The notes below the pieces were generated by a model that was given only the letters and a program-made list of their open reading frames with translations, searched no databases and was not told the origin of the DNA. Shown one piece after another: positions 2,133-13,480 of a stretch of 14,356 nucleotides of DNA. Numbering within the stretch: position 1 is the first letter of the stretch; each line of letters opens with the position of its first letter. The translations under genes and the position numbers were made by a program. Source of the stretch: a virus (Duplodnaviria; Heunggongvirae; Uroviricota; Caudoviricetes). The DNA is taken from IMG/VR virus record IMGVR_UViG_2526164619_000014. One strand, given 5' to 3'.

Positions 2133-2304
2133 TAAAGACCTTTCTCTACATTTCACTTCATTACATAACCACTTAAAAAAACAGTAAGTTATCACCGAAT
2201 CGGCCTGATTTTCATTTCAGTTAATTTCATGACATTACAACCTCGTGATGGTATAAGTGATGGTATTCCCCAGTTCGATATGCAGATACCATCAATTTAC
2301 CAAA

Positions 2305-3590
2305 ATGAGTACAGATATGGCCATTAATGTGCTTTCCCCCAAACAGATAGAAAACGCCAAGCCGAAGACCAATGATTACAAACTTACCGATGGAGGGAGT
2401 TTGTATCTACTGGTACGAAAGACTGGTGGAAAATACTGGCGTATGAATTATCGTTTTGATGGAAAACAAGTGACATTGGCATTAGGGGTCTACCCAGATG
2501 TCTCACTTGCAACAGCGCGGAAACGGCGTGATGAAGCCAGGCAACTACTAGCCGATGGTCGTGATCCTCGCGAAGCAAAGAAACCCAAAAAGGAAGACCC
2601 AATTTCCCCCACGTTCGAGAGTGTTGCCAGAGAGTGGCATAGTGGAACGATGGGGCATCCTGAGTGGAAAGAGATCACCCGTAAAAAATTCTCCGAGAAA
2701 TGGAAAACCACCTCTTTCCTGCCATCGGTTCAAAGCCTATCGATACGCTCAAAACCCGTGACTTGATGCCGATGCTGGTTGAGATGACTGAGAAAGGAAT
2801 TGGTGCCACAACGAGCCGTGTAAAAACCACTATGACGAGCATCTTCCGTTATGCCGTGCAACGTGGAATTGTCGATTACAACCCTGCCCACGATCTAAAA
2901 GGTGCAATTACGGCCCCCAAAGTACGACATCGCCCCGCACTACCTCTCGAACGTTTACCTGAACTGTTAGCGAAAACGAGAAGTTACACGGGAAGACCAT
3001 TGACTCGCCTAGCAGTTCTCTTTTCCCTGCACACTTTTGTGCGATCCAGCGAACTACGACATGCCAGATGGGAGGAGATCGACATTGAAAATGGGCTATG
3101 GACGATACCAGGACAACGTGAAGAGATCGCAGGGGTTAAATTCTCAGATCGGGGTGCAAAGATGGGGGCTGCTCATTATGTCCCGCTATCTAGTCAGGCT
3201 ATCGGGGTACTGGAGGATATAAGGAAAATCAGTGGTGAATATCTGCTGGTTTTTCCCGGTGACAGCAACCCATATAAACCGATGAGCGAAAACACAGTTA
3301 ATAAAGCACTGCGAACGATGGGTTACGACACTCAAACTGATGTTTGCTTGCATGGGTTCAGGGCGATGGCCTGCTCTGCACTGACCGAATCAGGACTCTG
3401 GTCACGCGATGCAGTTGAACGGCAGATGAGTCACCAAGAAAGAAACGAAGTGCGGGCAGCATATGTGCATCTTGCGCAGCACATGCAGGAACGCCGCAGA
3501 ATGATGCAATGGTGGTCTAATTATCTGGAACTAAATAAGGACGAATTCCATGCTCCTTATGACTTATCAGGTATTAACATTATCAATTAA
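2305..3590 (+). pseudogene. int: P4-type tyrosine integrase, reading frame broken in an A6 run (2683-2688); N-terminal part 2305..2766, catalytic part 2700..3590
   Basis: N-terminal ORF carries the P4-integrase-type N-terminal domain (..YKLTDGGSLYLLVRKTGGKYWRMNYRFDGKQ..). Second ORF carries the tyrosine-recombinase catalytic domain (..HGFRAMACS.. and C-terminal ..AAYVH..). Adding one A to the run at 2683-2688 gives a continuous ..RKKILREMENHLFPAIG.. reading. Start is ATG 2305 or 2317; the 2257 extension of the ORF track is unlikely. Lies directly 3' of the tRNA, as expected for the integrase of a tRNA-inserted element. Confidence 0.85.
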
Positions 3591-3620
3591 ATACTCTTAT
3601 AATTTAAAACAGAGGTCATA

Positions 3621-4502
3621 ATGCAGCATTCAACAGAGAATGAAACTATATTCTTAGGAAATCTATGGATTGACAAAAAAATACCACCATTAGAATATTG
3701 TTCATTTGAACGCGCTTCAAGACTATTAGAATGCGAGATTGATGATTTATTACATCTATACGAAATAGGCGCTTTTAATATCGCATTCAAGGCGGATGGA
3801 CTTGCAGTTAGATTTAATGTTAATTTCCTCAATAAAAATCAGAAAATGGAAATTGACTTAATTCATCCCGTATTAACTAATCAATCACTAGAGATGGAAT
3901 TTTCAACAATATGGTATGACCTTAAAGATGATTCCTTTGAACATTTTGAAAATGGGCTTCAAATTATAGGATTTGCCTGTGGTATTTGGTACGCCGATGA
4001 TATGATAAGTGACATAAAAAATGGATTAGCTATAGATCCAGATTATGAATTCAGGCTTAAACCGGTAAAAATACGAGATAATGTTTTGATGGCAACGGCC
4101 TCATATGAAGGAAATAAGGTCATTGAGATTCCATTTGAAGATCTTCTTATCATGCGAAGAGATTTAGAGTTAATATGGAAATCAGTAAAAACTGGAATTC
4201 CTATGCCAAGTTTACTTACGAAAAGAATTTCATCTGAACCTAAAATCCCCAAGCGATTAAATAACACTGCTGAGCATCATGCAAAAAATAGGGAGGGGTT
4301 ATTAAATGCAGCCATATATATATTAGCAAAATACCCAAGCGAATGTCGTGGTGAAAGAAAAGAGATAAGTCCTGAAAAGTGGACTAACGCCATAATTAAA
4401 CATTTAGGAGAGCTACCTCCAATATTTATCACTAATGAACAAGAAATCTTAAGAAAATTACGATTAGCGGTTAATCATGCGGGATTAAAACAAAAGGGGT
4501 AG
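3621..4502 (+). CDS. hypothetical protein (293 aa), AT-rich, no recognisable domain; sits between int and alpA
   Basis: Uninterrupted ORF with a good Shine-Dalgarno (AGAGG shortly upstream of ATG 3621). Clearly lower G+C than the flanking int and alpA genes (judged by eye). No motif I can assign. Confidence 0.6.
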   Translation: MQHSTENETIFLGNLWIDKKIPPLEYCSFERASRLLECEIDDLLHLYEIGAFNIAFKADGLAVRFNVNFLNKNQKMEIDLIHPVLTNQSLEMEFSTIWYDLKDDSFEHFENGLQIIGFACGIWYADDMISDIKNGLAIDPDYEFRLKPVKIRDNVLMATASYEGNKVIEIPFEDLLIMRRDLELIWKSVKTGIPMPSLLTKRISSEPKIPKRLNNTAEHHAKNREGLLNAAIYILAKYPSECRGERKEISPEKWTNAIIKHLGELPPIFITNEQEILRKLRLAVNHAGLKQKG

Positions 4503-4604
4503 ACTGAAACAATCTACAGGTAGAGTTGATTACACTACCTTCACAGCATTTTGATATCCCCATAGTATCTGCCGTGTTCATTACATAATACGGCAGGTAA
4601 TTTC

Positions 4605-4820
4605 ATGACATTAAAAACTTATCCTATCACTGGACATGCCCGCCCACGAGCTACTGCTGACTTTTTGCAAATAAGTACGGTTACTCTCTGGCGCTGGGAA
4701 AAGAACAATCCTGAATTTCCCAAATCTATACGCATTTCAAAACGGGTATCTGTTTACGATGCACAAGAAATTAGGCAGTGGGTTAAAGCTCAATCAGCAG
4801 GATTGGAGGAAGTAGTGTAA
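4605..4820 (+). CDS. alpA: AlpA-family phage transcriptional regulator / excisionase-like HTH protein
   Basis: 71-aa ORF; the segment ..FLQISTVTLWRWEKNNPEFPKSIRISKRVSVYDAQEIRQWV.. matches the AlpA/Vis-type winged-HTH pattern as recalled. Shine-Dalgarno AGGT 6 nt upstream of the ATG. Confidence 0.8.
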   Translation: MTLKTYPITGHARPRATADFLQISTVTLWRWEKNNPEFPKSIRISKRVSVYDAQEIRQWVKAQSAGLEEVV

Positions 4821-4838
4821 TGACAATATTAACAAAGC

Positions 4839-4860
4839 TGGGGAGAAAAAAGCCTCCCCA
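4839..4860. terminator. bidirectional hairpin between the convergent alpA and RHH genes
   Basis: Stem TGGGGAG (4839-4845), loop AAAAAAGC, stem CTCCCCA (4854-4860). Lies between the alpA stop (4820) and the stop of the minus-strand ORF (4870). T-tracts on either side are only moderate. Confidence 0.4.
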
Positions 4861-4869
4861 ACGTATTAA

Positions 4870-5064
4870 TCAATTCTTTGGTTCTAAACCTCGGCTTTGT
4901 AACTCTTTGCGTAGAATGCGCTTGATCCAAGCCGCTAGCGATTCATCGCCATCCTGCTGTTGTGCTTGTTCCATCAGTTCACGCAGTTCAGGGTCAAGTC
5001 GGAACTGGAATGGCGGATTCCCACGTCTTTCATTTTTGTGTGTTGACACGTCAATTACACCCAT
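4870..5064 (-). CDS. ribbon-helix-helix (Arc/CopG-like) DNA-binding protein, putative repressor
   Basis: 64-aa ORF; ..PPFQFRLDPELRELMEQAQQQ..ESLAAWIKRILRKEL.. has the beta-strand / helix / helix layout of RHH regulators. Perfect palindromes lie immediately upstream of its start. No convincing Shine-Dalgarno, so confidence is moderate. Confidence 0.5.
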   Translation of the reverse strand: MGVIDVSTHKNERRGNPPFQFRLDPELRELMEQAQQQDGDESLAAWIKRILRKELQSRGLEPKN

Positions 5065-5098
5065 TGTAATGTATTTATGTGTAATGACACATTACACA
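5042..5098 (+). promoter_or_regulatory. rightward sigma70-like promoter (TTGACA-N16-TGTAAT) overlapped by operator-like inverted repeats
   Basis: TTGACA at 5043-5048 and TGTAAT at 5065-5070. Perfect 9-3-9 palindrome TGTGTAATG-ACA-CATTACACA at 5078-5098, with related half-sites ATTACAC (5054-5060) and TGTAATG (5065-5071). Lies between the divergent RHH and Icd-like genes. Confidence 0.4.
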
Positions 5099-5180
5099 CA
5101 GAAAAACAAAATAGCAACGCCCCGGAGTGTTTGCAGCAGCACCGAGGCGTCTGACCAGCACGTTATATGAGGTAACGAAG

Positions 5181-5357
5181 ATGGCTAAACAGAAGTGTAC
5201 CTGGTTATTTGCGGCGATCAACCGCAGTCAACGCAATGCCCGTCCTGTGATGTTAAGGATCACCGCAGATAACGAACGATCAGCGCGGCGCAGACTTGCC
5301 CCGGACTATGTACTGAGCTTTGCCGGGCGCATTCCCTGCGGAGGTGAACATGCGTAA
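5181..5357 (+). CDS. Icd-like (P4 host cell division inhibitor-like) small protein
   Basis: Start ATG 5181 with GAGG 8 nt upstream. The segment ..WLFAAINRSQRNARPVMLRITADNERSARRRLAPDYVLSFAGRIP.. matches the Icd-like pattern recalled from P4-like prophages. The 5127 start in the ORF track is a less likely upstream extension. Confidence 0.6.
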   Translation: MAKQKCTWLFAAINRSQRNARPVMLRITADNERSARRRLAPDYVLSFAGRIPCGGEHA

Positions 5358-5709
5358 TTATCCGCACCCCGGCGAACGCTGGCAGCATGAACGTGGCTGG
5401 ACGGTCACGATTATCCGATTAATAGAAGCCTCGCCCTCTGTGGCGCTGGTTAATCCTGAATTCAGCTGTGAAGTGCTGATACGTCATGACAGCGACAACA
5501 AGCTTTCTTCCTGCCCTCTGGCATGGTTTGAACAGCGGTATACGCGCCTGTTTGATGTACCGCTCTTGAAGCCTGCACCAGCTCCTGCTGGCGGTAGTGG
5601 TTCCGGCCCGCTGACACTGCATCCGTCTGTGCTATTTATCCGCTGGCGGGAGCGTAGCATACGGCGTTCTGCTGAGCCTGACGACGGTCACTATTCAAAG
5701 TTTCTCTGA
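5350..5709 (+). CDS. hypothetical protein (about 120 aa)
   Basis: Start ATG 5350 preceded by GGAGGTG; 8-bp overlap with the Icd-like gene suggests coupling. No recognisable motif. Confidence 0.5.
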   Translation: MRNYPHPGERWQHERGWTVTIIRLIEASPSVALVNPEFSCEVLIRHDSDNKLSSCPLAWFEQRYTRLFDVPLLKPAPAPAGGSGSGPLTLHPSVLFIRWRERSIRRSAEPDDGHYSKFL

Positions 5710-5850
5710 CAAAATACCGCTGAAAACGGAGTAATCCACGATGAATATTTCAAACGGGCACAACGGTGCTCAGGGCCACACTTTGCCTGAAAAACACAAT
5801 ACCGGTGCTGAGGTGTACTGGCAATAGCGGACACTACCATTTGTTCTTTT

Positions 5851-6713
5851 TTAAGCAGCCATCTGATGATATTTTTCCCTGAAGGCTGCCGGGGAGATAT
5901 TTCCCAGACGAGAGTGACGACGCTGACGATTGTAGAAAATCTCAATGTATTCCCGTATTACTGAGATGGCTTCATCCCGGTTATTAAAACGATAGTGGCT
6001 CAGGCTCTCATTTTTCAGCGTTCCCCAGAAGCTTTCCATCGGAGCGTTGTCGTAACAGTTACCTTTACGCGACATTGATGTTTTCAGACCAGACTGCTCC
6101 TGTATGACCCGGTAATCGTATGCGCAGTACTGTGAACCTCGATCAGAGTGGTGGATTAGCCCGGCAGGTGGGCGCTGGCTCCTGAGCGCCATAAACAGGG
6201 CTTTACCTGTCAGCTCTTTTGTCATGCGCTCTCCCATGGCGTAGCCGACAATTTCGCACGTATAAACATCTTTAATGCCAGCGAGGTACAACCATCCCTC
6301 CTGTGTGGCAACATACGTCAGGTCCGCCACCCAGACCTGATTTGGTGCTGTAGGAGCGAACGTCTGGTTCAGCAGATTTGGCGCAACTGGCAGATTGTGG
6401 TTCGGGTTCGTAGTCGCTCTGAACTTGCGTTTCTGCTTACAGCGTAGCCTTAGCTCCTTACGAAGACGTGCCAGTCGGTCACGACCAACGATGATGCCAT
6501 TCTCTGCCAGCTCCGTCTGGAGCCGCCGGGTTCCATATGTTTCGAGTGCGGATATGTGCCACCTTAATCTCCAGTTTTAGCCGCCCATCACTTTGTTTTC
6601 TGTCTGAGGGTTCATGCTGTACCCAGTTGTAATAACCGCTCCTGGATACACCAAATACCTGACACATCGCTTCAATGGGAAATTGTTGTCGCCATTGTTC
6701 GATTAACGCGTAT
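5851..6713 (-). pseudogene. IS3-family transposase OrfB (DDE catalytic domain); reached from orfA by the usual -1 frameshift but carrying an additional frame break near 6540-6545
   Basis: N-terminal part in the -1 frame (..AEKYALIEQWRQQFPIEAMCQVFGVSRSGYYNWV..IRTR). Catalytic part 5851..6330 (..HHSDRGSQY.., ..GNCYDNAPMESFWGTLKNE..) is in a different frame. Minus-strand read CGCACTCGAAACATATGG is consistent with one extra base or two missing bases. Confidence 0.7.
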
Positions 6714-7005
6714 TTTTCAGCGACTCCTGTGCAAAATACGCTGTTGCTTTTTTTAATATATCTCGCTCAAGGCGAGCTTCATTTAACGCCTTACGCAGTT
6801 GCAGAATTTCAGATTCCAGTTCAGCCACCGTGCGGGAACCAGGAGTACCGAGCCCTTTTCTGGCGGCGGTAACCCATTGTCCTAAAGTGCCTTCAGGAAG
6901 GGATAATCGGGAAGCGCCTTCACTGATCGAAAGTTGATTTTCAAGAACCGTTCTGACAGCTTCGGCTTTGAACTCTTTAGAGTAACGTTGGTTTTTTCTG
7001 CTCAT
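6703..7005 (-). CDS. IS3-family transposase OrfA (HTH / leucine-zipper part)
   Basis: 100-aa ORF MSRKNQRYSKEFKAEAVRTV.. ending ..KKATAYFAQESLKNTR, the typical IS3-family OrfA C-terminus. Overlaps the orfB frame in -1 at the A-rich motif GAAAAAT (about 6707-6713). Confidence 0.9.
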   Translation of the reverse strand: MSRKNQRYSKEFKAEAVRTVLENQLSISEGASRLSLPEGTLGQWVTAARKGLGTPGSRTVAELESEILQLRKALNEARLERDILKKATAYFAQESLKNTR

Positions 7006-7285
7006 TATTAGCTCCTTCTGATGCCATTCTATTTCAGGAAGGAGTGTCCGTTAAACTCAGGCTACCTCATGCTTTTGCCTATGGGTTGTCAGAGGACAGT
7101 TTCGGAAAGCTGACCCGCGCAAGAAATGCCTGCGACATGCTCCAGCTTCTCTTTTCTGAATACCCGTCTCAGGCCGGAGCACTGGACGCAGGCTGTGCGC
7201 CTGGTGTCGCCGCGCTGATGGAGTACCTGCTGGCAGATTTGACGGATATTGCACACAGCTGCGCACTGATTGAAGGAGGTGCCAG

Positions 7286-7669
7286 ATGAACCAGCCGCAG
7301 GTTTCCATTTTCCCGGTAGAAATGACCACCGCGCTTTACCGGCGGGCTATTGCTTCAGCATGGCGGCAGAAAATGCTGAACGAAACTGGCAGTGATCAGT
7401 ATGGTCCGCACAGCCTGACGGTGGAGCGTATTGAAATGGCCATTGCGCTGCATATCGAGTGCGTACTGATTAACGAGTACGGCGAAGTGCAGGGCGCCGC
7501 TGCCGCGCTGGCACTGCTGACTGACATGCTGGAGCCGTCACTGCTGACCGCGCCGCCGGTACTGACCGCGCGCGGCTGTGAAGTGATGGCGGAGATGTAC
7601 CGCACGCTTCCGGCGGCATTTGATGACTTCTGCAGTACCGGTGTGACGTTGTATGAGGGGGAAGTATGA
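7286..7669 (+). CDS. hypothetical protein (127 aa), second gene of the primase operon
   Basis: ATGA overlaps at both ends (7286-7289 and 7666-7669) couple it to the flanking genes. No recognisable motif. Confidence 0.6.
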   Translation: MNQPQVSIFPVEMTTALYRRAIASAWRQKMLNETGSDQYGPHSLTVERIEMAIALHIECVLINEYGEVQGAAAALALLTDMLEPSLLTAPPVLTARGCEVMAEMYRTLPAAFDDFCSTGVTLYEGEV

Positions 7670-10338
7670 CAATACAGACGGTTACGCAGGTTTCAGCCGC
7701 CGCACGGGGGAAATGGCCCGTTATTCTGCAGATGCTGCGTATTGATGTACCTGAAAACGGCAGGCACGGTCCCTGCCCGAAATGTGGGGGCAAGGATCGT
7801 TTTCGCCTTGATGACCTTGACGGGCGCGGGACGTGGATCTGCAGCCAGTGTGGCAATGGTGACGGTCTGGATCTGGTTAAGCTCGTAACCGGTTACAGCG
7901 TCAGAAAGGCTGCGCAGGAGGTGGCGCAGGTGCTTAATGTGCCGGATATGCAGGAACTGCCTGTTAAGCCTGCCAGACAAAAAGCCCCTAAACGCGACAT
8001 GGGTCTTACCGTGGCGGCGCTGATGAAAGAGAGCCACACGGGAGAAAGCGCCTATCTGACAGGAAAAGGGTTCGCCGGATACCCGGCCTCTCTGACCGGA
8101 AGCGTACAGCATATCAGCGGTAAGGATTTTCCTGCCGGTTCCCTGCTGTTACCACTCACGACCAACACCGGAGCCGTGACCGGTGCACAGCTTATCGCCC
8201 CGACGGGTGAAAAAAGCATACTGCCCGGCAGCACGATGAAAGGCGCGTTTGTGTCGCTCAGCCCGTTACCGTCTGAACCACCGATACAGGTGGTGATTAC
8301 CGAAGGTTACGCTACGGCGCTGACGGTAAGCCAGCTCACTGCCGGATGCGTAGTGGCTGCCATATCTGCGGGCAACCTGCCCAATGTGGCGCAGTCGCTG
8401 CGGGCACGCTGGCCTGAGGTAAAAATTATCATCGCCGGTGATAACGATTTTCAGGACGGGGGTGAGAATCCCGGCAGAGCCTTTGCTGAACGGGCGGCAA
8501 AAGCTGTTGGCGGCTGGATGACGCTGCCACCAGGAGAGATTAAGGCTGACTGGAATGACTTTCATCGGGAGCACGGTATTACCCGTGCCCGTGAAGCCTT
8601 TCGCAACGGTCTGGTACTCTGCGGGGAAAGCCGCACGCAACTGCCGCACGGGTTCCGTCTTACCCAGGAATATCTCTGGTATGAAAAGCAGGTACAGCGC
8701 AACGGTGAGACGGAGATCCAGAACGTCAAAATATGCAGCCCGCTGCGCGTGACGGCAATCACCTGCGATGCCGATGGCGGTAACTTCGGACGACTGCTGG
8801 AATGGGAAGATACGTGGGGTGAGTGTCGCCGCTGGGCGATGCCGATGGAAATGCTGAGCGGCAGTGGTGAGGAACTGCGCCGGGTACTGCTGGTTAACGG
8901 GCTGTCTTATATCAGCACCACCGGTGAGGCACGCGCACGCCTGATGGAATATATCTCACTGTGTAAACCGGAACGCCGCGTGACCTGCATCAGTCGTACT
9001 GGCTGGCATGGTCAGGTTTACGTCCTGCAGGATGAGGTCAGCGGTGAAGGTGCAGAGGGTGTCATTCTCCAGACCACTTCCGTGCAGGGGCGTGATTTCC
9101 GCGTGTCGGGCACAACAGAGGAATGGCGGGAGCATGTATCCCGCTACTGTACCGGCAACTCCCGCGTGGCATTTGCTGTCAGCCTGGCCTTTGCTGCACC
9201 ACTGTTACGGCTGGTTGGTATGGACGGCGGCGGCTACCACCTCAAAGGGGAATCGACAGACGGTAAGACCACCACCATGAAAGCAGCAACCTCCGTCTGC
9301 GGCGGGCCTGACTACTGGCAGACATGGCGGGCCACCGGCAACGCGCTGGAGGGATGCGCCAGCCGCCGCAACGATGCCGCCATGATGCTTGATGAGATCC
9401 GGGAAGTTGACGGACGCGAGGCAGGCAATATCGCCTACATGCTGGCAAACGGTCAGGGCAAGGGCCGTGCCGGTACGGACGGTGAGCTGCGTACCCGTAA
9501 GCAGTGGCGCCTGTTGTTCTTTTCAACTGGCGAATTGTCTCTGACCGAACATGCGGCAAAGGCCGGTGAGCGTACTTTTGCCGGGATGGAAGTCAGGATG
9601 ATCCAGATCCCCAGCGATTCCGGGAAGTTTGGCGTTTTTGAGGAGCTGCACGGCTTCGACAGCGGCAAGGCTCTGGCAGAGCATCTTGAATGGGCCACGT
9701 CCTGCTACTACGGTTCGCCGTTCCGGGAGTGGCTGAAAGCACTGACCGCTGATCTTAACGGACTAACGGCACAGGCAAAATCGCTGATGAAGGAATATGC
9801 TGCCGCCCTGACTCCGAAAGATGCAGGCAATCAGGTGGGCCGGGCTGTGAACCGCTTTGCACTGGTGGCGATGGCAGGTGAACTGGCAACCCGTCTGGGT
9901 ATCACCGGCTGGCCTGAGGGTGAAGCACTGCGGGCAACCCGCGTCTGCCTGAACGCATGGCTGAAAGATCGCGGGCACACCGCCAATCAGGAAGATATCG
10001 CCGCACTGGAGCAGGTTCGCAGTTTCTTTACCGCGAATCAGTACAGCCGCTTTGCAGACTGGTATGACGAGCGCAACCGCCCCGGCAATATGGTGGGCTG
10101 GCGAAGGGTGGAGAAAGGCAGTACCGCGCAGGGCACGGAAGCTGTCACTACGTTCTATGTCATGCCGTCCGGCTGGAAAGAAATCTGCAGGGGATTTGAC
10201 CCGCGCAAGGTGGCGCGTCTGTGCGCAGATCGTGGATACCTGCTGCCCTCCACTGATGGCAAACTCCAGACAACCATTCGCCCGCCAGAGATGAATCCCC
10301 GCAGGCTCTATGTCTTCAACAGCGAGGTGCCGGGTTAA
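7666..10338 (+). CDS. P4 alpha-like primase/helicase (zinc-binding N-terminus, TOPRIM primase, D5-type P-loop NTPase)
   Basis: 890-aa ORF. N-terminal CPKCGGKDRFRLDD..WICSQCG zinc-ribbon typical of P4-family primases. Walker A GESTDGKT at about residue 525. GAGGGGG Shine-Dalgarno before ATG 7666. Confidence 0.9.
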   Translation: MTIQTVTQVSAAARGKWPVILQMLRIDVPENGRHGPCPKCGGKDRFRLDDLDGRGTWICSQCGNGDGLDLVKLVTGYSVRKAAQEVAQVLNVPDMQELPVKPARQKAPKRDMGLTVAALMKESHTGESAYLTGKGFAGYPASLTGSVQHISGKDFPAGSLLLPLTTNTGAVTGAQLIAPTGEKSILPGSTMKGAFVSLSPLPSEPPIQVVITEGYATALTVSQLTAGCVVAAISAGNLPNVAQSLRARWPEVKIIIAGDNDFQDGGENPGRAFAERAAKAVGGWMTLPPGEIKADWNDFHREHGITRAREAFRNGLVLCGESRTQLPHGFRLTQEYLWYEKQVQRNGETEIQNVKICSPLRVTAITCDADGGNFGRLLEWEDTWGECRRWAMPMEMLSGSGEELRRVLLVNGLSYISTTGEARARLMEYISLCKPERRVTCISRTGWHGQVYVLQDEVSGEGAEGVILQTTSVQGRDFRVSGTTEEWREHVSRYCTGNSRVAFAVSLAFAAPLLRLVGMDGGGYHLKGESTDGKTTTMKAATSVCGGPDYWQTWRATGNALEGCASRRNDAAMMLDEIREVDGREAGNIAYMLANGQGKGRAGTDGELRTRKQWRLLFFSTGELSLTEHAAKAGERTFAGMEVRMIQIPSDSGKFGVFEELHGFDSGKALAEHLEWATSCYYGSPFREWLKALTADLNGLTAQAKSLMKEYAAALTPKDAGNQVGRAVNRFALVAMAGELATRLGITGWPEGEALRATRVCLNAWLKDRGHTANQEDIAALEQVRSFFTANQYSRFADWYDERNRPGNMVGWRRVEKGSTAQGTEAVTTFYVMPSGWKEICRGFDPRKVARLCADRGYLLPSTDGKLQTTIRPPEMNPRRLYVFNSEVPG

Positions 10339-10370
10339 GGCTTTGCGTGAGTCTTATTTATTAAGGGTAA

Positions 10371-10560
10371 CAGGTGAAACAGGTGGAACAACCGTATTTT
10401 ACAGGGCTGAACCTGTTCCACCTTCTGAAATAGTGAGGTGGAACAGATGTAACGCCAGCCAATCCGCTGTTCCACCTTGTTACCCGCGATGTTCCACCGG
10501 TGCAGTGTATATAAATGCCTTATAAAACAAAGCTGTAACACATGTTTCACCTGTTCCACC
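10371..10560. repeat. iteron array (putative replication origin / crr-like region): six copies of TGTTCCACC in both orientations plus two GTTTCACC variants and an AT-rich box
   Basis: TGTTCCACC at 10414-10422, 10468-10476, 10490-10498, 10552-10560; GGTGGAACA at 10382-10390 and 10437-10445; variants at 10373-10380 (complement orientation) and 10544-10551. AT-rich stretch 10505-10540. Lies directly 3' of the primase gene. Confidence 0.6.
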
Positions 10561-10648
10561 GCATCAGGGACATAAAGCAGACTGAAACAGAGGGCATTTT
10601 TATCTGGCTGGCTTTCATAGCCACGTCTGAATAACCGCAAGCGCCCGT

Positions 10649-10704
10649 TGTGCCAGCCACCACACACTGAGCACCGATAGTGTGCTTGTGTCAGCCACGA
10701 CACA
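10649..10704 (+). promoter_or_regulatory. candidate late promoter region for the sid-like operon with two TGT-N12-ACA dyads (Ogr/Delta-type activator sites)
   Basis: TGT 10649-10651 / ACA 10664-10666 and TGT 10687-10689 / ACA 10702-10704, 35-90 bp upstream of ATG 10739. The dyad is short enough to occur by chance, so this is tentative. Confidence 0.35.
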
Positions 10705-10738
10705 ATTGACGTAACGAACCAACCCGACAGGAGAAGTC

Positions 10739-11482
10739 ATGAACAATACCGCAGTAAATAACAACCTTTCCACTTTTCCGGCTGTAACGCAGCGGGCACT
10801 GGAAACCATGAACACAGCCAGAAACGCATGGCTTGAAGCACGTCGTCAGCAGAAAGCGGCAGCGGATAATATTGCGACAATCCGCCAGCGTCGCGCTGAA
10901 ATGGAAGCCACGACGAACACACTGAATGAGGAGTGGCGCACGCTGTTTCGTGAAAGTCAGGGCGTGGTCTCAAAGGAAATGAAAAAACTGCGCACGGAAA
11001 TTGCGCTGGGACGAGAAACGCTTGAGGATTTTGATGAGCTGCTGGCGGCTCAGGAAAGCGAAAATGCACTTTTGCCGCAGAAAGCTGCAGAATTAGCCGG
11101 AAAGTATATCCACGCGCATAACATTCTTGTGGATATTCGCGCAAAACAAATCTGGGAGGATTTTATGCAGTCGCATGGAAAAGCGCTTATTCAGACGCTG
11201 AGCCTGCTTAAATCCACAATGGGCCGGGAAGCCAGTGCCGTTGTGGGTGTGGTGAATTCAGTTAATGACCCGGACACAGTGCTGAAAGACTTTATTCATA
11301 AACATATCACCAGACCGGCTCTGGCTAACGATGCGATGCCTGAGCAGGACCCGGTGTTTAAACTGGCGGGAGTTGCCCCGGATTATGCGGCGCGTCTGGA
11401 TTTCAGTAATCAACTCTCTCCGGCAGCTATGCATAAAATTAAGGTTCGTCAGGAACTCGCTGAGAAGGAGAAAGCAGTATGA
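10739..11482 (+). CDS. sid: Sid-like protein (P4 capsid size-determination / external scaffold homologue)
   Basis: 247-aa alpha-helical, charged protein; size and position (first gene of the late operon, followed by Psu-like and Ogr/Delta genes) fit P4 Sid. N-terminus resembles the Psu-like protein downstream. Assignment by context and recalled similarity only. Confidence 0.5.
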   Translation: MNNTAVNNNLSTFPAVTQRALETMNTARNAWLEARRQQKAAADNIATIRQRRAEMEATTNTLNEEWRTLFRESQGVVSKEMKKLRTEIALGRETLEDFDELLAAQESENALLPQKAAELAGKYIHAHNILVDIRAKQIWEDFMQSHGKALIQTLSLLKSTMGREASAVVGVVNSVNDPDTVLKDFIHKHITRPALANDAMPEQDPVFKLAGVAPDYAARLDFSNQLSPAAMHKIKVRQELAEKEKAV

Positions 11483-12030
11483 CGGCCCGAGGCACGCCTG
11501 ACCAGGCACTTACCAGTTTTCGGAATGCCCGTATTCTGTGGGCCGGACATAGTGAGAGCCGAAAAGCCGTTGAACAACAGATAACATCTCTCCTCGCTGC
11601 CACAGAAAAACCAGCAGATTATGCCCGACAGCTCGAATTACTGCGGGAACGTCTGGATGTGCTGAAATGGCAAATTAACTGTGCTGCGCGCGAATGCATT
11701 TACGCGCAGCATTTACTGATGGAGGCCTGCACAGAAGCCGCTCTCAGCAATTTTATGCAGGCGAATGGGGCAGCCCTGACATCTGCACTGGCTCCGTTCC
11801 TGAAGGGGCGCGGAGGGGTTGACGTTGCGTCCCGTATATTACGCAGTGCTCTGGTTCGCCAGCTGGCAATAACACCGCCTGAAATTGCCGGGGATTATCG
11901 TGAGATCCTGGATGAATCCGGTTTGATACCTGACCCCGGGATGATTCGTGATTGCCAGGACTCTTACACCCCGGCACAACATCTGCATTTTCAGCAACGC
12001 CTGAATGACATTAACGATATACAGGAGTGA
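11479..12030 (+). CDS. psu: Psu-like protein (P4 polarity suppression protein homologue)
   Basis: 183-aa ORF, ATGA-coupled to the preceding gene. Contains ..KWQINCAA.., ..FMQANGAALTSALAP.., ..YTPAQHL.. which match motifs I recall from P4 Psu (not verified by search). Confidence 0.6.
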   Translation: MTARGTPDQALTSFRNARILWAGHSESRKAVEQQITSLLAATEKPADYARQLELLRERLDVLKWQINCAARECIYAQHLLMEACTEAALSNFMQANGAALTSALAPFLKGRGGVDVASRILRSALVRQLAITPPEIAGDYREILDESGLIPDPGMIRDCQDSYTPAQHLHFQQRLNDINDIQE

Positions 12031-12308
12031 TTTTAAGGGCACTTAAATGTCCGGAATGCGGTACAGTTGCACACGCCAGAACAGCAGCCTATGAAGCTCC
12101 GTCAGTTAAACGCTCGTGGTATCAGTGCCAGAATCTGGAATGTTCCTGCACATTTACGGCACTGGAGAGTGTGGATAAGATAATCATGAAACCCCGGCGC
12201 AATGAACAGGAACCAGACAAATCACACCCCCCGGTAAAACAACAGCAAACGCTCAATCGCTATGGCTCCGCGTCAAAACTGTCAAGCCGTCAGCAGATTC
12301 CTGTCTGA
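12027..12308 (+). CDS. Ogr/Delta-family zinc-finger late-gene transcriptional activator
   Basis: ..CPECGTVAHART..YQCQNLECSCTFTALESV..IMKP.. is the Ogr/Delta signature (C-x2-C ... C-x4-C). Apparent GTG start overlapping the psu-like stop (GTGA). Confidence 0.85.
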   Translation: MILRALKCPECGTVAHARTAAYEAPSVKRSWYQCQNLECSCTFTALESVDKIIMKPRRNEQEPDKSHPPVKQQQTLNRYGSASKLSSRQQIPV

Positions 12309-12791: not shown

Positions 12792-13480
12792 ATGTCAAAT
12801 AAAGTTGATGTTTTTTGAGCCGAGTTAGCCATGTATCACAGTTTGTATTGGTGGCATTTGCTATTTTTGGATATTTTTATACAGTAAGACCAATTTACCA
12901 AAAGGAACTTTTATCAGAAGAAATTGCAAAAAAAGAAGTTGAATTAAATAAATTAAAAACTGCAATGGAAAACTCCCAAAAATTTATAGAGAATAATAAA
13001 ATCTTACGAAAAGAATTGGAGGGAAGCATTGCCAAACTTGATTTACAATACAAAGAATCAGAAGAAAAATTAAATTCAATAAATTCTGAACTAAGAAAAA
13101 CTTTAAATGAACTAAATAAACAAAAGACCATTGCCAAAAGAGCGGTCAATGCAAACAACAAGAATCTTGAATCTGTTTTCTGGGAGAATTTTTCGGGGCT
13201 AGTTGGAGTAGTTTATATTTCTAAGAGCACAGATTTTGTGAACAATACACTGGGTGACGCCAAAACAGCCTATAATACTCCTAGTAATTTATATATATCT
13301 CCTTATGATGCAATTAATGAAGCATTAAAAAATGGCAATCATAACTTTATCTCAAGTTCAGAAAATGTCCCTGAAAATATCCGCAACAAAATTCTAGCAA
13401 AGATCCGTCGCGCTATTGAAAAAAATAAGATTTCATTAACAAAAAACCTATCGGTTTTGATGAAAAAATTAATAGCCTGA
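12792..13480 (+). CDS. cargo protein A: membrane-anchored coiled-coil protein of unknown function (about 229 aa if read from ATG 12792 through a one-base frame break in the T6 run 12811-12816; the ORF track gives TTG 12815..13480)
   Basis: AGAGG Shine-Dalgarno then ATG 12792 encodes MSNKVDVF and stops at TGA 12816-12818; the long ORF continues in the -1 frame from 12815. The joined N-terminus MSNKVDVFLSRVSH.. aligns with the in-frame N-terminus of the downstream paralogue. One hydrophobic helix (FVLVAFAIFGYFYTV), then a K/E-rich coiled-coil-like region. Strongly AT-rich. Confidence 0.6.

Follow-up and report, generated by a model that had tools for sequence, protein, structure and literature searches.

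Iteron origins located 3' of a satellite initiator gene are already well known. The Rep protein of SaPIs is a helicase that loads itself, and with its C-terminal winged helix it binds 6-12 iterons directly downstream of rep; on either side of an AT-rich region, these iterons border DNA whose melting needs no ATP, and in SaPI5 the pri and rep genes are fused (PMC9371898). The origin layout of Gram-negative PICIs is like that of SaPIs, and the pri-rep-ori region from EcCICFT073 drives plasmid replication, for which the gene and ori must both be intact (PMC6092414). In the annotation of P4, crr lies directly 3' of the alpha gene and ori directly 5' of sid. The canonical gene order of P4 prophages is int, psu, delta, sid, alpA, epsilon, alpha (PMC8628076). 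In the literature that we searched, we found no description of a DUF927 primase-Rep family in P4-like satellites, of its origin or of its iteron classes. Here we describe such a protein together with the iteron array that follows its gene, both found in a 14,356-bp stretch of DNA, referred to below as the window.

The satellite element and its iteron array

The element in the window is a P4-like satellite, as indicated by its integrase, AlpA, Sid, Psu and Delta genes beside a tRNA gene. The insertion adjoins tRNA-Arg(CCT) at 2058-2130, downstream of mlaA and yfdC. Its gene order from 2257 to 12308 is int, alpA, DUF5375, primase, the proposed ori, sid, psu, delta, all on the + strand, which is unlike the order in P4 prophages cited above. 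There are two Psu-family genes, a sid-like gene (247 aa, 10739-11482) and psu (183 aa), as well as a gene for an Ogr_Delta zinc-finger protein; the DUF5375 gene is P4 orf106-like, and no epsilon/Ash homologue was identified in the element.

This copy of the element has several peculiarities. Its integrase (ORFs 2257-2766 and 2700-3590) is split by a 1-bp deletion at 2682 relative to the intact 424-aa gene of E. coli CH4811 (locus L002), and the frameshifted copy is probably unable to excise. A 1,260-bp insertion at 5810-7069, absent from the otherwise 99%-identical CH4811 locus, carries a fragment of an rve (IS3-type) transposase (ORF 5851-6330, - strand) and disrupts a small hypothetical gene upstream of DUF5375. 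Given the frameshifted integrase and the IS insertion, this copy may no longer be mobile. A 221-aa ORF located after delta (12815-13480) shows a weak partial PADLOC match to LmuB (E 6e-5) and may represent anti-phage cargo in the variable region of the satellite.

The features of the primase gene and of the primase-sid intergenic region (10339-10738) are listed below; exact copies were located by a pattern search of the 14,356-bp window and degenerate slots by alignment with relatives.

7666-10338, + strand: gene for a fused primase/initiator-helicase of 890 aa
10177-10335, + strand: codons of the predicted winged-helix end (approximately residues 838-890; secondary structure from models)
10352-10357, + strand: TCTTAT motif between the primase stop codon and iteron 1, invariant in 12 aligned loci of seven iteron classes
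10364-10498: left iteron block, slots 1-9, with orientations - - - + - - + + + in the alignment (exact at 10382, 10414, 10437, 10468 and 10490; near at 10373; degenerate at 10364, 10446 and 10478)
10364-10372, - strand: degenerate slot TGTTACCCT
10373-10381, - strand: one-mismatch copy TGTTTCACC, adjoining an exact copy with a 9-bp period
10382-10390, - strand: exact copy of TGTTCCACC
10414-10422, + strand: exact copy of TGTTCCACC
10437-10445, - strand: exact copy of TGTTCCACC
10446-10454, - strand: degenerate slot CGTTACATC
10468-10476, + strand: exact copy of TGTTCCACC
10478-10486, + strand: degenerate slot TGTTACCCG
10490-10498, + strand: exact copy of TGTTCCACC
10499-10533: AT-rich box between slots 9 and 10, candidate DNA-unwinding element (GC content and 12-locus alignment)
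10534-10560, + strand: right iteron block, slots 10-12, in tandem with a 9-bp period (degenerate, near, exact)
10534-10542, + strand: degenerate slot TGTAACACA
10543-10551, + strand: one-mismatch copy TGTTTCACC, adjoining an exact copy with a 9-bp period
10552-10560, + strand: exact copy of TGTTCCACC
10649-10738, + strand: Psid-like late promoter (TGT-N12-ACA pattern search; aligns with P4 Psid)

The six exact copies of TGTTCCACC, four on the + strand and two on the - strand, all fall within 179 bp (10382-10560), and no further exact copy was found elsewhere in the window. By chance 0.12 copies would be expected, and none of 200 shuffled sequences reached six. Apart from the two one-mismatch copies that adjoin exact ones, there are five other one-mismatch matches in the window, dispersed as chance predicts, and a search allowing one mismatch identified no second iteron cluster in the window, beyond which the right end of the element lies. 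Across 545 kb of fetched DNA, TGTTCCACC occurs 68 times, 60 of them in nine loci of the window's own iteron class and eight elsewhere, which corresponds to a background rate outside own-class loci of approximately 1 per 68 kb. The preliminary description of this locus, made from the sequence alone, had noted six exact copies in both orientations and two near-copies and had expected the 9-mer to be enriched here; these observations are confirmed, but the array was under-counted. Alignment with relatives resolves 12 positionally conserved slots (10364-10560; six exact, two near and four degenerate), the first of which begins 25 bp past the primase stop codon.

The centre-to-centre distances of the exact copies (32, 23, 31, 22 and 62 bp, calculated from the coordinates) correspond to approximately 3, 2, 3, 2 and 6 helical turns, which would place these copies on about one face of the DNA. 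The outermost slot triplets are mutually inverted (- - - ... + + +), and slots 7-9 and 10-12 on either side of the AT-rich box all face the same way. The box is off-centre, with nine slots on its left and three on its right, and keeps its position in the 12-locus alignment. GC content is 0.325 at 10500-10539, the intergenic minimum, and 0.325-0.35 across 10500-10559, as opposed to 0.475-0.575 in windows starting at 10380-10480; an AT-rich box, also part of the original description, is therefore present.

The region was further described as having no credible coding capacity, and this holds as well. Two mechanical ORFs overlap the array (10310-10525, + strand; 10335-10703, - strand); neither has a Pfam match, and the annotation places no gene at the array in any of the 15 listed E. 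coli matches, all near-identical, nor in the CH4811 locus, which is annotated throughout. An Rfam scan of the whole window returned the tRNA only, a promoter and terminator scan of 10250-10800 gave no match, and the single-strand folding signal of the array (z = -5) reflects only the inverted iterons. A literature search for TGTTCCACC returned only unrelated primer matches among the matches listed.

Downstream of the array, TGT-N12-ACA (Ogr/Delta-type) boxes are located at 10649-10666 and 10687-10704, 38 bp apart and upstream of the ATG at 10739. Their spacing and their distance to the start codon are identical to those of the P4 Psid boxes (9493-9510 and 9531-9548). Since this Psid-like promoter occupies 10649-10738, the array is an element separate from the late promoter. 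Between the two, at approximately 10597-10609, lies a TTCTGGCGGGC-like box that is kept across iteron classes whatever the next gene.

The primase-Rep protein and its relatives

Judging from profile matches and structural models, the 890-aa protein is a DnaG/P4-alpha-type primase fused to a putatively self-loading helicase of the SaPI-Rep/Cch type (DUF927, MCM-like) with a predicted winged-helix end. Its N-terminus contains Zn_Ribbon_Prim and Toprim_3 domains (Pfam), homologous to the Zn-ribbon and Toprim primase of P4 alpha (38% identity in BLASTP, confined to residues 5-322); no BLASTP similarity to P4 alpha was detected past residue ~322. Residues 330-612 match DUF927 (E 6.2e-90), with a Walker A motif, GESTDGKT, at approximately residues 528-535 in the DUF927 core. 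In phmmer searches the protein matched SaPIbov1 Rep (8tch, 5.8e-15) and SCCmec Cch (5dgk, 2.9e-13), and the GxxxxGKT motif lines up in these alignments. The D5_N, DUF5906 and Pox_D5 domains, all present in P4 alpha, are absent according to Pfam, and the corresponding halves of the two proteins are non-homologous.

The final ~280 residues have no Pfam match. An AlphaFold2 (AF2) model of residues 686-890 (pLDDT 84.4), built on a shallow alignment of 15 sequences, shows five helices, two strands, two helices and a beta-hairpin, a predicted helical bundle plus winged helix. Foldseek searches with this model gave significant matches to 8tch (E 6e-6, 202 columns) and 5dgk only; identity to SaPI-type Reps in the C-terminal domain is just 9-14%. 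In the full-length AF2 model the DUF927 core is of low confidence (pLDDT below 50) and unusable. Within the winged-helix end (residues ~838-890), which is a candidate determinant of iteron specificity, the model places a putative recognition helix at ~846-856 and a beta-hairpin wing at ~866-884. The preliminary description had assumed a C-terminal domain of the P4 alpha type; this assumption finds no support, the modelled domain matching SaPIbov1 Rep and SCCmec Cch instead.

Using an alignment-based scan of reference genomes, we fetched 55 relative loci from approximately 30 genera of Enterobacterales; their proteins share 57-99% identity with that of the window. Each of the 49 full-length loci whose flank was long enough has an array of like slot order and orientation, and in 46 of them it starts no more than ~100 bp from the primase stop codon. 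Counted from the stop codon, the slots are inverted at ~+26 to +50, forward at ~+76, inverted at ~+100 and forward at ~+126 to +160; these are followed by an AT-rich gap and then by one to three forward copies (two or three in most), found at ~+189 to +294 in related loci. An alignment of 12 loci representing seven classes gives approximately 12 homologous slots.

When k-mers were counted de novo over the 450 bp past each stop codon, every locus of testable length except four yielded a repeated 8-9-mer. The fourth of these has a truncated gene. The other three, L039, L047 and L056, at first appeared to be array-less, an interpretation that we rejected: in these loci a 335-aa tyrosine-recombinase-like ORF (6649-7656 in L039) is inserted between the primase stop codon and a TGTTCCCAC-class array, which sits 1.15 kb downstream of the primase, beyond the searched 450 bp, with its layout intact. 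In 22 representative loci the iteron core is confined to the array within +/-4 kb, with one stray copy. The array is present beside the primase even where tblastn detects no sid, psu or delta homologue downstream, and it therefore belongs to the primase and not to the late operon. The array region is carried by 328 of 5,426 complete E. coli genomes (~6%).

The layout is shared and the iteron motif is lineage-specific. The motifs found are TGTTCCACC, TGTTACACC, TGTTACCCC (or the same ending in A), TGTTACCAG, TGTTACCAC, TGTAACC(G/A), TGTATCCAC, TGTACTACA and TGTTCCCAC, and at least eight iteron classes can be distinguished among the relatives. Most family members use TGTTAC-type 9-mers, and the four degenerate slots of the window still read TGTTAC or TGTAAC, as in sister lineages; together this suggests that the C at position 5 of TGTTCCACC is a lineage-specific change. 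Within the window's class (eight loci from several genera), variable positions number 4 of 72 in slots versus 32 of 111 in spacers (p = 9e-5); iteron slots are under purifying selection.

In three cases, two members of the family in one genome carry differing iteron classes: L004 and L046 in Pantoea stewartii, L012 and L052 in P. leporis, and L013 and L042 in Enterobacter intestinihominis. These anecdotal cases fit selection for orthogonal replicons.

Co-divergence of the primase C-terminus and the iterons

Several primase pairs are 95-98% identical yet differ in their iterons (L025/L028, L023/L024, L019/L030 and L019/L020); for L023/L024 and L025/L028 the identity is 96.5-97.6%, and K866R and T867P are candidate specificity substitutions. 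Substitutions in these pairs concentrate at residues ~846-887, which correspond to the predicted recognition helix and wing, and are also found in a linker at residues 81-205. Among primase pairs that differ at no more than 55 positions (identity ~94% or higher), the final 50 residues account for 17.7% of substitutions (48/271) where iterons differ versus 3.8% (31/816) where they match (Fisher p = 2e-12), the pairs being phylogenetically non-independent, with approximately four independent switch events underlying this result. A Lys/Arg difference at residue 866 splits the ...CAC and ...CCC classes from the ...CCA-type classes.

The same pattern is seen at the DNA level. In switch pairs the trough of identity is restricted to the interval between about -200 and +250 relative to the stop codon; the DNA to its left and right is more alike (93-99% for the clearest of these pairs). 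A control pair with the same iterons is 98-100% identical across this region.

The linker was also considered as a specificity determinant and rejected. It varies in every switch pair, but its share of substitutions is 36.5% where iterons differ and 35% where they match, which is not a significant difference; being equally variable with or without an iteron switch, the linker is merely hypervariable. Residues 81-205 (~7906-8280), comprising the linker and N-terminal subdomain, hold ~35% of substitutions in 14% of the protein length in all close pairs, whatever the iteron class.

Function of the array and comparison with known systems

In our view the array at 10364-10560 very probably serves the primase-Rep of this P4-like satellite as its cognate replication origin. 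This assignment draws on the motif enrichment, the slot layout, the lineage-specific motifs, the co-divergence with the last 50 primase residues, the likeness of the modelled fold to SaPIbov1 Rep and the selection on slots. That the array is an origin cognate to the primase, read by its C-terminal domain, had been proposed in the preliminary description, and the comparative evidence strongly supports it. By analogy with SaPI Rep, the winged helices of a hexamer would bind the 9-bp iterons on either side of the AT-rich box, the bound hexamer would melt the box (10499-10533), and the DUF927 helicase would then load itself onto the opened DNA. As the origin fires, host DNA polymerase III would receive its first primers from the protein's own N-terminal Toprim primase. 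The gene's 3' end, coding for the predicted winged helix, and the iterons are ~30-230 bp apart and may evolve and be exchanged as one specificity cassette.

Three other readings of the array were weighed against this one. The array might be a true homologue of P4 ori/crr, served by a P4-alpha-type origin-binding domain and having an iteron one base longer. The homologous primase domain would agree with this, as would the P4-type sid, psu, delta, alpA and DUF5375/orf106 genes. So would the position of the array, which resembles crr in following the primase on its 3' side and ori in lying ~90 bp upstream of a Psid-like promoter. Moreover, TGTTCCACC equals the P4 octamer TGTTCACC plus one inserted base, and on its left side the array, with three inverted copies before a forward one, mirrors P4 ori. 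Searches for the D5-type helicase and the Pox_D5 origin-binding domain failed, however, and of five features that define the P4 alpha-ori/crr system the window lacks four (D5 helicase, Pox_D5 domain, octamer and bipartite layout). The resemblance between the two iterons looks superficial, given that relatives mostly have TGTTAC-type iterons and that the window keeps degenerate TGTTAC/TGTAAC slots. The homology to P4 ori/crr proposed originally is thus not supported, and we regard it as very improbable.

It is improbable, too, that the array is mainly regulatory, acting in initiator titration or "handcuffing", as a crr-like enhancer, or as operators that gate read-through into the sid operon. 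Plasmid iteron arrays commonly have control roles, and the annotation of P4 gives crr as a cis element that is required and separate from ori. The scan turned up no intrinsic terminator in the stretch from the primase stop codon to the sid-like gene, so that a bound protein could affect read-through. On the other hand, no second iteron cluster is found, either across the window or over +/-4 kb in 22 relatives, which leaves the initiator no other candidate origin; the array follows the primase even at loci without a detected sid, psu or delta homologue; and it has an iteron-flanked AT-rich box, as do characterised SaPI/PICI origins (PMC9371898, PMC6092414). That the repeats are sites for some protein unrelated to the primase (DnaA, IHF, AlpA, an integrase at arm-type sites or a helper-phage protein) is extremely improbable. 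Integrase arm sites and operator arrays, too, typically show short repeats that face both ways, and one lineage has an iteron, TGTATCCAC, that is similar to a DnaA box. However, the motif varies among elements of closely related hosts with conserved DnaA and IHF, the window's array contains no DnaA box with up to one mismatch and lies ~8 kb from the tRNA attachment site, and the motif co-diverges specifically with the last 50 primase residues, the DNA to either side remaining 93-99% identical in the clearest of the switch pairs.

Read as the cognate origin, the array provides a concrete origin and a candidate specificity determinant for a primase family that occurs in ~6% of complete E. coli genomes as well as in many further genera of Enterobacterales. 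On sequence and modelled structure, the origin module appears to be of the SaPI/PICI type, not the P4 type, in a satellite with P4 sid, psu and delta. Satellites that are "P4-like" by their capsid-hijack genes can thus run what looks like a SaPI/PICI-type replication module, and in an E. coli PICI the module is of the P4-alpha type. A swap of replication modules between P4-like and PICI satellites appears to have taken place, and modules that cross satellite families are poor family markers. Published P4-like sets that were scored without alpha may be worth another look for this primase type. Near-isogenic pairs (95-98% identical, with different iterons) offer material for mapping how the winged helix may read the 9-bp site and could supply orthogonal replicons for engineering.

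A broader proposal, to which we give about even chances, is that across Enterobacterales the cassette has given rise to at least eight classes that are mutually orthogonal, that in this lineage a single array replaces ori plus crr, and that the module is a P4-type primase fused to a SaPI-type Rep. If so, several related satellites could replicate side by side in a cell, kept free of cross-talk by the orthogonality of their classes, and the primase-Rep fusion would be direct evidence of replication-module exchange between Gram-negative and Gram-positive satellite families.

Among known systems, P4 shares with the window element the orf106-like gene upstream of the primase and the TGTT..ACC flavour of its iterons. 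The octamer TGTTCACC is missing from the window's array, with one chance copy at 5343-5350. P4 ori and crr are 4.5 kb apart, whereas the window has one array (a single cluster also in the 22 relatives, within +/-4 kb); since the primase and sid genes adjoin in the window, this array takes both P4 positions, that of crr and that of ori. In P4 a terminator is annotated before crr, whereas none lies between the window's primase gene and the array.

EcCICFT073 resembles the window in that its origin directly follows the initiator gene on the 3' side and has short iterons facing both ways around AT-rich DNA, and in its left-hand genes (int, AlpA-type regulator, Icd-like, YlcI-like). Its 3' origin iteron is TGTCTACC. 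We had considered it as an experimentally validated homologue and rejected this, its initiator (L059, 11242-13284, E. coli CFT073) being of the P4-alpha-like D5 type (D5_N/DUF5906/Pox_D5), without Zn-ribbon/Toprim and without DUF927; it shows no significant similarity to the window's protein, and EcCICFT073 is an analogue only. SCCmec Cch (5dgk) has a related helicase and C-terminal fold but lacks a fused Toprim primase, and we found no description of an iteron origin for it in the literature searched.

The closest match is to the SaPI/PICI Rep-ori system. The DUF927/MCM-like helicase with its Walker A motif and, according to the model, the C-terminal winged helix are common to both; iterons lie directly 3' of the initiator gene, 6-12 in that system and 12 slots in the window; and the fusion of primase and Rep has its counterpart in PriRep of SaPI5. 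Some features are at odds with a SaPI origin. SaPI iterons are 5-6 bp long, compared with 9 bp in the window, and the SaPI AT-rich box is roughly central, compared with the off-centre 9/3 arrangement here; a SaPI/PICI origin has two or more iterons to each side of the AT-rich region, in opposite directions, a geometry that the window shows only in part; in addition, the sole tested Gram-negative PICI replicon in this comparison, EcCICFT073, has the D5-type initiator. SaPIs reside in Gram-positive cocci, whereas the family described here, known from sequence, belongs to Enterobacterales and is accompanied by the P4-type sid/psu/delta hijack module.
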